From positions 9,989 to 73,988 of the forward strand of contig JAHITK010000014.1 in the NCBI GenBank assembly GCA_018817645.1: a stretch of 64,000 nt of DNA. The letters run 5' to 3'. The translations under genes and the position numbers were made by a program. Source of the stretch: Patescibacteria group bacterium. GTDB lineage: Bacteria; Patescibacteriota; Minisyncoccia; Minisyncoccales; PEYH01. The notes beneath the pieces were generated by a model. The model worked only from the letters and a program-made list of their open reading frames with translations, was not told the origin of the DNA and searched no databases. Every line of letters begins with the position of its first letter. Within the stretch, counting starts at the first letter, position 1. Below, piece after piece: positions 54,851-55,628 of this stretch.

Positions 54851-54932
54851 AAATAAAAAAATATCTCTCTGTGTTATTATACTATAGCAGAAAATGCCTA
54901 TTTTTCAATGCTTTGCTTGTTCTTCCACTCTT

Positions 54933-55628
54933 CTATTTTTTTATGATTGCCCGAAAGAAGAATTTTGGGAACTCTCCAAAATTTCGCTCTGCGAAATTTT
55001 GGAGGGCAAGCCCGCCAATTTTTAATATATTTTCCCGCCTCAAGCGCTTCGGGCCGGGTATATTGAGGATACTCTCCTTGAATTTTGAATTTTGAATTTT
55101 GAAATTAAAACTCTCCTCTTTTAACGATTCTTCTTTTATAACCCCGGGAATTAAACGCGAAACCGCATCCACCACCACCATTGCCGGAATTTCTCCGCCC
55201 GTAAGGACATATTCGCCTATTGAGATTTCTTCATCGGCAATATATTTTGCCACTCTTTCATCAACCCCCTCATAACGGCCGGAAATCAATATTACCTGCT
55301 TGTATTTTTTGGCAAACTCCTGCGCCTTTTTCTGATTAAACGGCTTGCCTTTTGCGGACAGTAAAATAATTCTTCTATCTTTGCCGCCGATCTTTTTGTC
55401 AATAACCTTCTTAATCGCCTTAAAGATGATGTCCACTTTCAAAATCATTCCCGCTCCCCCGCCATAAGGTCTGTCATCAACTGTCCGATGCCGGTCAGCG
55501 GCATAATCCCTCAAATTATGGATGTTAATCTTTATTAACTTCTTTCTCTGGGCGCGCTTAATTATACTCTCATCAAAATATGAAGCAAAAATTTCCGGAA
55601 ATATGGTTATAATGTCGAATCTCACCAT
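54933..55628 (-). CDS. trmD: tRNA (guanine37-N1)-methyltransferase TrmD, frameshifted near the 3' end
   Basis: [12 protein letters not shown]...RPYGGGAGM...[11 protein letters not shown] are TrmD motifs. The conserved C-terminus ([10 protein letters not shown]...[24 protein letters not shown], stop at 54898) is in another frame after the (CAAAATT)x3 repeat at 55081-55101. Confidence 0.85.

Follow-up and report, generated by a model that had tools for sequence, protein, structure and literature searches.

A frameshifted trmD in a Patescibacteria genome very probably reflects the loss of one unit from an in-frame heptanucleotide array

Results

The trmD gene and its surroundings

The window, which is the whole 64-kb stretch of DNA that was analyzed, carries trmD on its minus strand, with an ATG start codon at 55628. 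The annotated zero-frame ORF extends from 55628 to 54933 and encodes 231 aa; it is identical to the deposited MAG protein MBU1045956.1 (Patescibacteria group bacterium; P0008 in our protein set). No exact match to the truncated protein was on record in the contig index. A terminator-like hairpin with a T-run is located on the minus strand at 55647-55667, immediately upstream of the trmD start and between trmD and a KhpA-like gene. This hairpin may act as an attenuator and reduce the expression of trmD compared to that of rpsP. Downstream of the trmD region, at 52022-53611, the Pfam annotation of the ENA contig described below places an MjaI-like restriction endonuclease paired with an N4/N6 DNA methyltransferase.

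Only the first part of the annotated ORF is TrmD. The match to Pfam family PF01746 was confined to residues 24-182 (E=6e-45, 153.7 bits, cut-off 27.3), and the ORF is TrmD-like only as far as the motif KEESF. Beyond this motif, a tail ending in AIIKK and a stop codon (54933..55076, minus strand) is read out of frame; ORF list, translation and Pfam agree that it has no TrmD similarity, as the first-pass annotation had stated. The conserved TrmD C-terminus, ending in SIEK and a TAG stop codon at 54900-54898, is encoded in a different frame from that of the ATG. When the intact 245-aa protein P0001 was used in a tblastn search of the window, residues 1-184 aligned in frame -3 with 100% identity and residues 176-245 aligned in frame -2 with 97% identity. 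The N-terminal SPOUT domain and the beginning of the interdomain linker (residues 1-184 of 245) thus occupy 55077..55628 on the minus strand, and most of residues 1-160 were modeled by AlphaFold2 (AF2) with a pLDDT above 88. The C-terminal domain (residues 176-245 and the stop codon) occupies 54898..55110 on the same strand, as seen in the frame -2 alignment and the frame-2 translation. Whereas the two domains share one continuous frame in P0001, in the window they do not.

The change of frame occurs at a heptanucleotide array, (CAAAATT)x3 at 55101-55081. In the coding sense the full 26-nt tract is TTC(AAAATTC)x3AA (55078..55103, minus strand), for which TRF reported a period of 7, 3.7 copies and a 100% match. 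It is, therefore, a perfect coding tandem repeat with a unit that is not a multiple of 3. The first-pass annotation had placed the frameshift at exactly this repeat, and both the tblastn frames and the TRF coordinates bear this out. It had also located the C-terminus in another frame with its stop at 54898, which is correct, but had that frame reached by deleting 1 nt. Counted from the ATG, this is the -1 frame, which is reached by adding 1 nt.

This difference matters for how the gene can be repaired. The gene was rebuilt with 0 to 6 units, and full-length products were obtained with 1 unit (238 aa) and 4 units (245 aa). With 2 or 5 units the simulated products were truncated at 193 and 200 aa, and 3 or 6 units also failed to give a full-length protein, so that the frame is kept only by 1, 4 or 7 units. 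The repair proposed earlier, removal of one unit or addition of two, therefore fails; the real repair is to add one unit or to remove two. For the same reason, it was wrong to take 2 or 5 copies as the mark of an in-frame gene, since it is 1 or 4 units that restore the frame. The reconstructed in-frame protein matched PF01746 in full (E=2e-54, 184.9 bits, cut-off 27.3), and TrmD structures in the PDB matched at E=2e-51.

Two other arrangements of the locus were considered. A split gene, with the C-terminal domain translated from its own start codon, was rejected because the C-terminal frame holds no ORF of at least 30 aa beginning with ATG, GTG or TTG. A second trmD, for which the first-pass annotation had advised a search, was not found within the 64-kb window.

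An intact allele in other assemblies of the same population

The 245-aa protein P0001 comes from ENA assembly ERZ27247128 (contig k141_771363, 133.7 kb) and is identical to the protein predicted for a 4-unit array. This contig aligned to window positions 8600-64000 with 0 mismatches over ~55 kb and with two differences, both in tandem repeats. The first is the trmD array, which has 4 units in the ENA contig and 3 in the window (7 nt); the intact allele, with one unit more than the window, has a 33-nt tract. The second is a 17-mer tandem repeat at 10785-10848, in which the window is 2 units (34 nt) longer than the ENA contig. A gene for an ABC-transporter ATPase follows shortly downstream of this perfect repeat (CCTGCCGAGATCAGAAT, 3.8 copies).

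A third assembly was available as Logan contigs from run SRR6514274, which were 100% identical to the window wherever they overlapped it. The breakpoints of two of these contigs fall within the trmD array, where L007 ends and L009 starts; both contain at least 4 units. Their terminal 31-mers are present in the 4-unit allele and absent from the window allele. The start of the right-hand contig is one base off the simple expectation. Another Logan contig begins within the 17-mer array at 10785-10848. The contig breaks in trmD were rejected as proof of length heterogeneity since they are ambiguous: the periodic 31-mers are possibly shared with other genomes. The intact 4-unit allele is, nevertheless, present in the same clonal population and was recovered by two of the three assemblies. 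Among the matches listed from JGI metagenomes and GTDB genomes there were no near-identical copies, the best listed being 79-80% identical.

These comparisons bear on whether trmD is a true, fixed pseudogene in this strain, with its TrmD function either gone or provided by another copy in the genome. The deposited protein is indeed the truncated 231-aa ORF, and our view is limited to 64 kb of the genome, so both points can be counted for this explanation. It would, however, have to accommodate a single lesion without further decay, 0 mismatches to an intact allele over ~55 kb, the lack of a second trmD in the window, and the presence of an intact TrmD in all relatives sampled. We consider it very unlikely. 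An old pseudogene was not supported, as the gene carries no further lesion and, the 7 nt apart, the window matches the intact allele with 100% identity.

The window and the ENA assembly differ at tandem repeats only, and each of them holds one shorter array, which fits collapse of a repeat during assembly. No k-mer is private to the 3-unit trmD allele at k<=27, or to the short 17-mer allele at k<=31; therefore, each short allele can be reached as a cycle-free path from long-allele reads at small k. On the other side, the assembler that produced the window resolved the harder 64-nt 17-mer array yet shortened the easier 33-nt heptamer array, which favors a real 3-unit allele over pure collapse.

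The trmD reading frame in relatives

Related loci were drawn from JGI metagenomes and GTDB genomes. There were 160 among the matches listed, and the 131 with a complete ORF were analyzed. The comparison with orthologs that the first-pass annotation had called for gave a uniform result: no frameshifted trmD was seen among the 160 listed loci (131 complete ORFs), and the loci examined run from GRYEGVDER to LLSGNH in a single frame. The C-termini of 118 other listed database homologs were likewise all in frame.

Some of these relatives carry the same family of repeat at the same place. Locus L012 has an in-frame TTCAAAA array of 4.6 units, whose tract shares 32 positions with the 33-nt tract of the 4-unit allele; the two genes are 79% identical overall. 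Proteins P0046 and P0052 contain the peptide of a 4-unit array, and P0023 has the 1-unit form, GFKIQG. L093 has a decayed copy of the array, and the closest relatives of the window gene among the matches listed (L010, L011 and L091) are entirely without the 24 nt. Within the TTCAAAA family at this site, only the frame-preserving 1-unit and 4-unit states were seen in intact genes, which argues against both programmed frameshifting and a contingency switch.

The contingency switch would be a case of adaptive phase variation, with trmD reversibly OFF at 3 units and ON at 4 units and with subpopulations deficient in m1G37. As such a switch would need, the array is within the coding region and its unit length is not divisible by 3. 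Two alleles, of 3 and 4 units, also occur among assemblies of one clonal population, although assembly collapse gives an identical picture. A precedent is neuO of Escherichia coli K1, carried by the CUS-3 prophage and switched by heptanucleotide coding repeats, which has 3-53 units and is OFF in 66% of genomes (PMC13001214). Set against that 66%, zero OFF alleles were found in ~130 listed related loci and 118 listed homologous proteins. The trmD array also has just 4 units and sits in the gene of a housekeeping enzyme, and the in-frame arrays in three other genes of the window (rsmH, cysS and a PCMT-like gene; see below) point to a mutational by-product and not to a switch. Phase variation of trmD is, thus, very unlikely.

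Another possible explanation is programmed or compensatory -1 frameshifting on the 3-unit mRNA, for example by a tRNA-Lys slip on A_AAA in TCA AAA TTC, which would yield full-length TrmD. No stop codon interrupts the -1 frame between the TAA in TTT-TAA-TTT and the end of the array; slippage at any point of the array would thus rescue the protein, and one A_AAA site is present there. 'Savior' frameshifts on indels are reportedly discussed in the literature. Yet no ortholog among the listed loci and homologs needs such an event, and the same population contains an in-frame allele. The usual signals were also missing: there is no X_XXY_YYZ heptamer (the zero frame offers A_AAA only), no structure 5-9 nt downstream (the nearest strong stem is a 14-bp hairpin ~75 nt downstream), and no SD-like element 10-14 nt upstream. 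Frameshifting of this kind seems to us extremely unlikely. An autoregulatory loop like that of prfB, built on the role of TrmD in suppressing +1 frameshifts, was rejected, since it is a -1 shift, not a +1 shift, that the 3-unit allele would require. Of the four options first offered for this locus, an assembly slip and repeat-number variation survive. Programmed frameshifting, which no ortholog needs and for which the slippery heptamer is lacking and the strong hairpin is ~75 nt away, and a pseudogene, which has no lesion other than the 7 nt, were not supported.

The array and the site-2 segment in the protein

In an alignment to the solved TrmD structure 3ky7, the array corresponds to an 8-residue insert directly after the EESF motif of the interdomain linker. 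The AlphaFold2 model of the 4-unit protein had a mean pLDDT of 81.5. Residues 171-191, which are encoded by the array, fell below 50, and the array is predicted to encode a disordered linker that tolerates changes in length.

Compared to canonical TrmD, the SPOUT-type tRNA m1G37 methyltransferase (PDB 3ky7 and 4yvi), the 4-unit allele is alike in its full PF01746 match and in its conserved LLSGNH. It differs by the 8-residue linker insert from the array and by a 19-residue insert at the beginning of the C-terminal domain. Many relatives differ from canonical TrmD in a third variable loop as well, at residues 73-86.

The 19-residue insert lies between YTRPE and VPxxLLSGNH in the alignment to 3ky7. 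It belongs to a clade-specific segment of 26 residues (the site-2 segment; 54973..55050, minus strand), modeled with a pLDDT of ~64-80. The segment was recognized as a gap in the PDB alignment and is kept in L010, L011, L091, L025, L059, L123 and many of the database proteins. Closely similar segments are found in many relatives, at identities as low as ~54%, for example ACPPKFRKAKIW, LCPSKFRKTKFW and FCPPKFRKVKFW.

Within this segment is a perfect palindrome, CTCCAAAATTTCGC-AGA-GCGAAATTTTGGAG, with 14-nt arms and a 3-nt loop (54974..55004), and the 14-bp stem was kept in an RNA fold. The first-pass annotation had described the inverted repeat correctly as perfect with a 3-nt loop but had placed it at 54975-55006, which is off by 1-2 nt. 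It had also read the repeat as a palindromic insert of about 19 residues. The insert is real relative to 3ky7, but a recent insertion was rejected since the 19-residue segment is conserved at the protein level in relatives to ~54% identity.

At the DNA level the hairpin is perfect in the window; L091 and L059 retain part of it, and L010 and L025 have lost it. No covariation was found in 7 sequences (72.4% of cells paired compared to 71.3% in shuffles, 179/500, with one double-change pair), and a conserved RNA hairpin was rejected on this ground. The palindrome was also rejected as a terminator because it did not match the terminator pattern. A search of the 64-kb window for further copies of the arms, with up to 2 mismatches, gave nothing beyond the two arms themselves and chance-level matches; a dispersed element was, therefore, rejected. 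Part of the palindromy is a consequence of the encoded peptide, as CCA (Pro) is complementary to TGG (Trp) and AAA (Lys) to TTT (Phe). The CGC/GCG pair and the perfection of the 14 bp suggest an origin at the DNA level, for instance by template switching.

Perfect hairpins with a stem of at least 11 bp and a loop of 3-8 nt were found at 14 loci in the window, compared to ~0.2 in shuffles. Several of the 14 are apparently between ORFs by position, for example those at 27468-27504, 34340-34375 and 43951-43982. Another perfect 14-bp palindrome, at 47767-47797, lies in the PCMT-like ORF, where it encodes ALLAYIVSQKG and adjoins the heptamer arrays of that gene, a pairing of palindrome and array like that in trmD.

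Heptamer arrays in the window and in relatives

Perfect arrays of at least 3 copies were counted in the window by period. Four had a period of 7, two had a period of 8, and no other period from 4 to 12 was represented; 20 shuffles gave zero arrays of period 7. In the relatives, 51 of the 92 perfect arrays had a period of 7. Arrays of period 7 are, thus, in excess over those of other periods and over shuffled sequence. The location of the trmD array is not the predominantly intergenic one, since it is coding, like arrays in three further genes of the window. The array in rsmH (33350-33380) is a perfect AATCCAA x4.4, in frame, with the peptide EIQNPKSKIQN. That in cysS (27028-27079) is a degenerate AAACTCA-type array of 7.6 copies, in frame, and the PCMT-like methyltransferase gene has AATTCCC/AAATCCC-type arrays at 47709-47766, also in frame.

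Several longer repeats were noted as well. Two long intergenic arrays, at 8734-8797 (ATTTTGG x9.6) and 48132-48209 (TTTGGAT x11.6), are given here as plus-strand units and are A-rich on the sense strand. They reach up to or near the start codons of downstream minus-strand genes and recall the TAACTGA repeats of Beggiatoaceae. An 8-mer array (TTAATTGT, 18.5 copies) occupies intergenic sequence between the genes for RNase III and nusB, at 57442-57590. A 387-nt repeat of 2.1 copies and 78% identity (36771-37595) lies inside a 1176-aa ORF (34423-37953) that has no Pfam match on record.

Among 119 non-identical listed related loci, perfect heptamer arrays of at least 3 units were concentrated in trmD, with 0.34/kb compared to 0.013/kb in other ORFs and 0.094/kb in the remaining sequence. 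The corresponding counts were 28, 5 and 14, so that 28/47 arrays were in trmD, at a density ~27-fold above that of neighboring ORFs (binomial P 5e-17, not phylogenetically corrected). The arrays occurred at three loop sites of trmD on the surface or in the linker, namely residues ~73-86, the linker and the site-2 loop (loci L010-L169). Their units are lineage-specific, for example AAAAGTC, AAAATGC, AAATACC, AAAGTTC and AATTCGA. Tract length was most often 32-33 nt, and most arrays had ~3.3-4.9 units, typically ~4.6. Array-bearing and array-free genes were interleaved on a neighbor-joining tree. In the sister genes L041 and L053 the inserts are equally long but consist of different units, which looks like concerted change.

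Discussion

The frameshift in this trmD is very probably a one-unit contraction of an array that normally has 4 units and is in frame, arising either by assembly collapse or as a slipped-strand variant. The normal trmD would be an intact 245-aa gene whose interdomain linker derives from an in-frame 4-unit heptanucleotide microsatellite (33-nt tract), and the loss of exactly one 7-nt unit in the window would shift the C-terminal tRNA-binding domain to the -1 frame. The loss could have occurred in silico, through collapse in a de Bruijn graph where no k-mer at k<=27 is private to the 3-unit path. It could also have occurred in vivo, as a replication-slippage variant that segregates in the population and was picked up by the consensus. 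We give the two origins roughly equal weight. The 3-unit state is presumably neither a functional nor a programmed one; it would give TrmD without its C-terminal domain, and the product would be inactive.

Heptameric SSRs are over-represented in bacteria, and their modal size in Xanthomonas is four units (PMC4692102). Polymerase slippage has been proposed as the origin of SSRs (Mrazek 2007, as cited in PMC4692102). The short tandemly repeated repetitive (STRR) sequences of cyanobacteria, the GGGAATC-type repeats of Xanthomonas and Nostoc, and the TAACTGA repeats of Beggiatoaceae resemble the arrays described here in being perfect, of period 7, over-represented, and mostly of ~four units. The TAACTGA arrays adjoin start codons (PMC4679880), as do some of the window arrays. 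The known heptamer arrays are, in contrast, mainly intergenic, whereas those described here are in frame in housekeeping genes, A-rich on the sense strand, and concentrated in trmD in relatives. In the literature searched, we found no description of heptamer arrays in Patescibacteria or in trmD.

The closest likeness to a coding switch is again neuO, in which a coding 7-nt unit gives the full-length product in one modulo-3 class only and a slip of a single unit turns the gene OFF (PMC13001214). That gene, however, is an accessory one for surface modification, whereas trmD is a housekeeping gene of the essential type, with an array of 4 units and an intact frame in all relatives examined.

Two other kinds of element are worth comparing. 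Rickettsia palindromic elements are in-frame selfish palindromes that add a translated segment to the surface of a conserved protein. The site-2 palindrome is similar as palindromic DNA translated as an extra segment in a conserved protein, but it has no dispersed family in 64 kb, is shorter (31 nt), and belongs to a clade-conserved protein segment rather than a recent insertion. The coding repeats of Borg elements reportedly have unit lengths divisible by 3. The trmD unit is unlike them in that it has 7 nt, so that a change of a single unit breaks the frame and only steps of 3 units are tolerated. The likeness is that perfect, apparently young repeats within ORFs encode disordered segments in Borg elements (PMC9879509), as is predicted here for residues 171-191 (pLDDT <50).

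A bolder explanation would combine these observations. The 3-unit allele would be real, heptamer arrays of Patescibacteria would be repeatedly born and homogenized in three loops of TrmD, and slips would reversibly switch trmD off in part of the population. As a whole this is very unlikely; the hotspot in trmD is the documented part, and a switching function of the trmD arrays is speculative. If it were true, switching of trmD would produce cells with altered maintenance of the reading frame.

The frameshift itself is a largely ordinary finding. MBU1045956.1 is no evidence for a missing functional TrmD or for recoding, because an intact allele exists in the same population. Both differences between the two assemblies are in the copy number of short perfect tandem repeats, which is a warning for pseudogene and frameshift calls based on MAGs. 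The hotspot in trmD, if it holds genome-wide and after phylogenetic correction, would be a tractable case of the birth, upkeep and turnover of a non-triplet microsatellite in an essential gene, and the 3-unit allele would then be a candidate for an out-of-frame intermediate.
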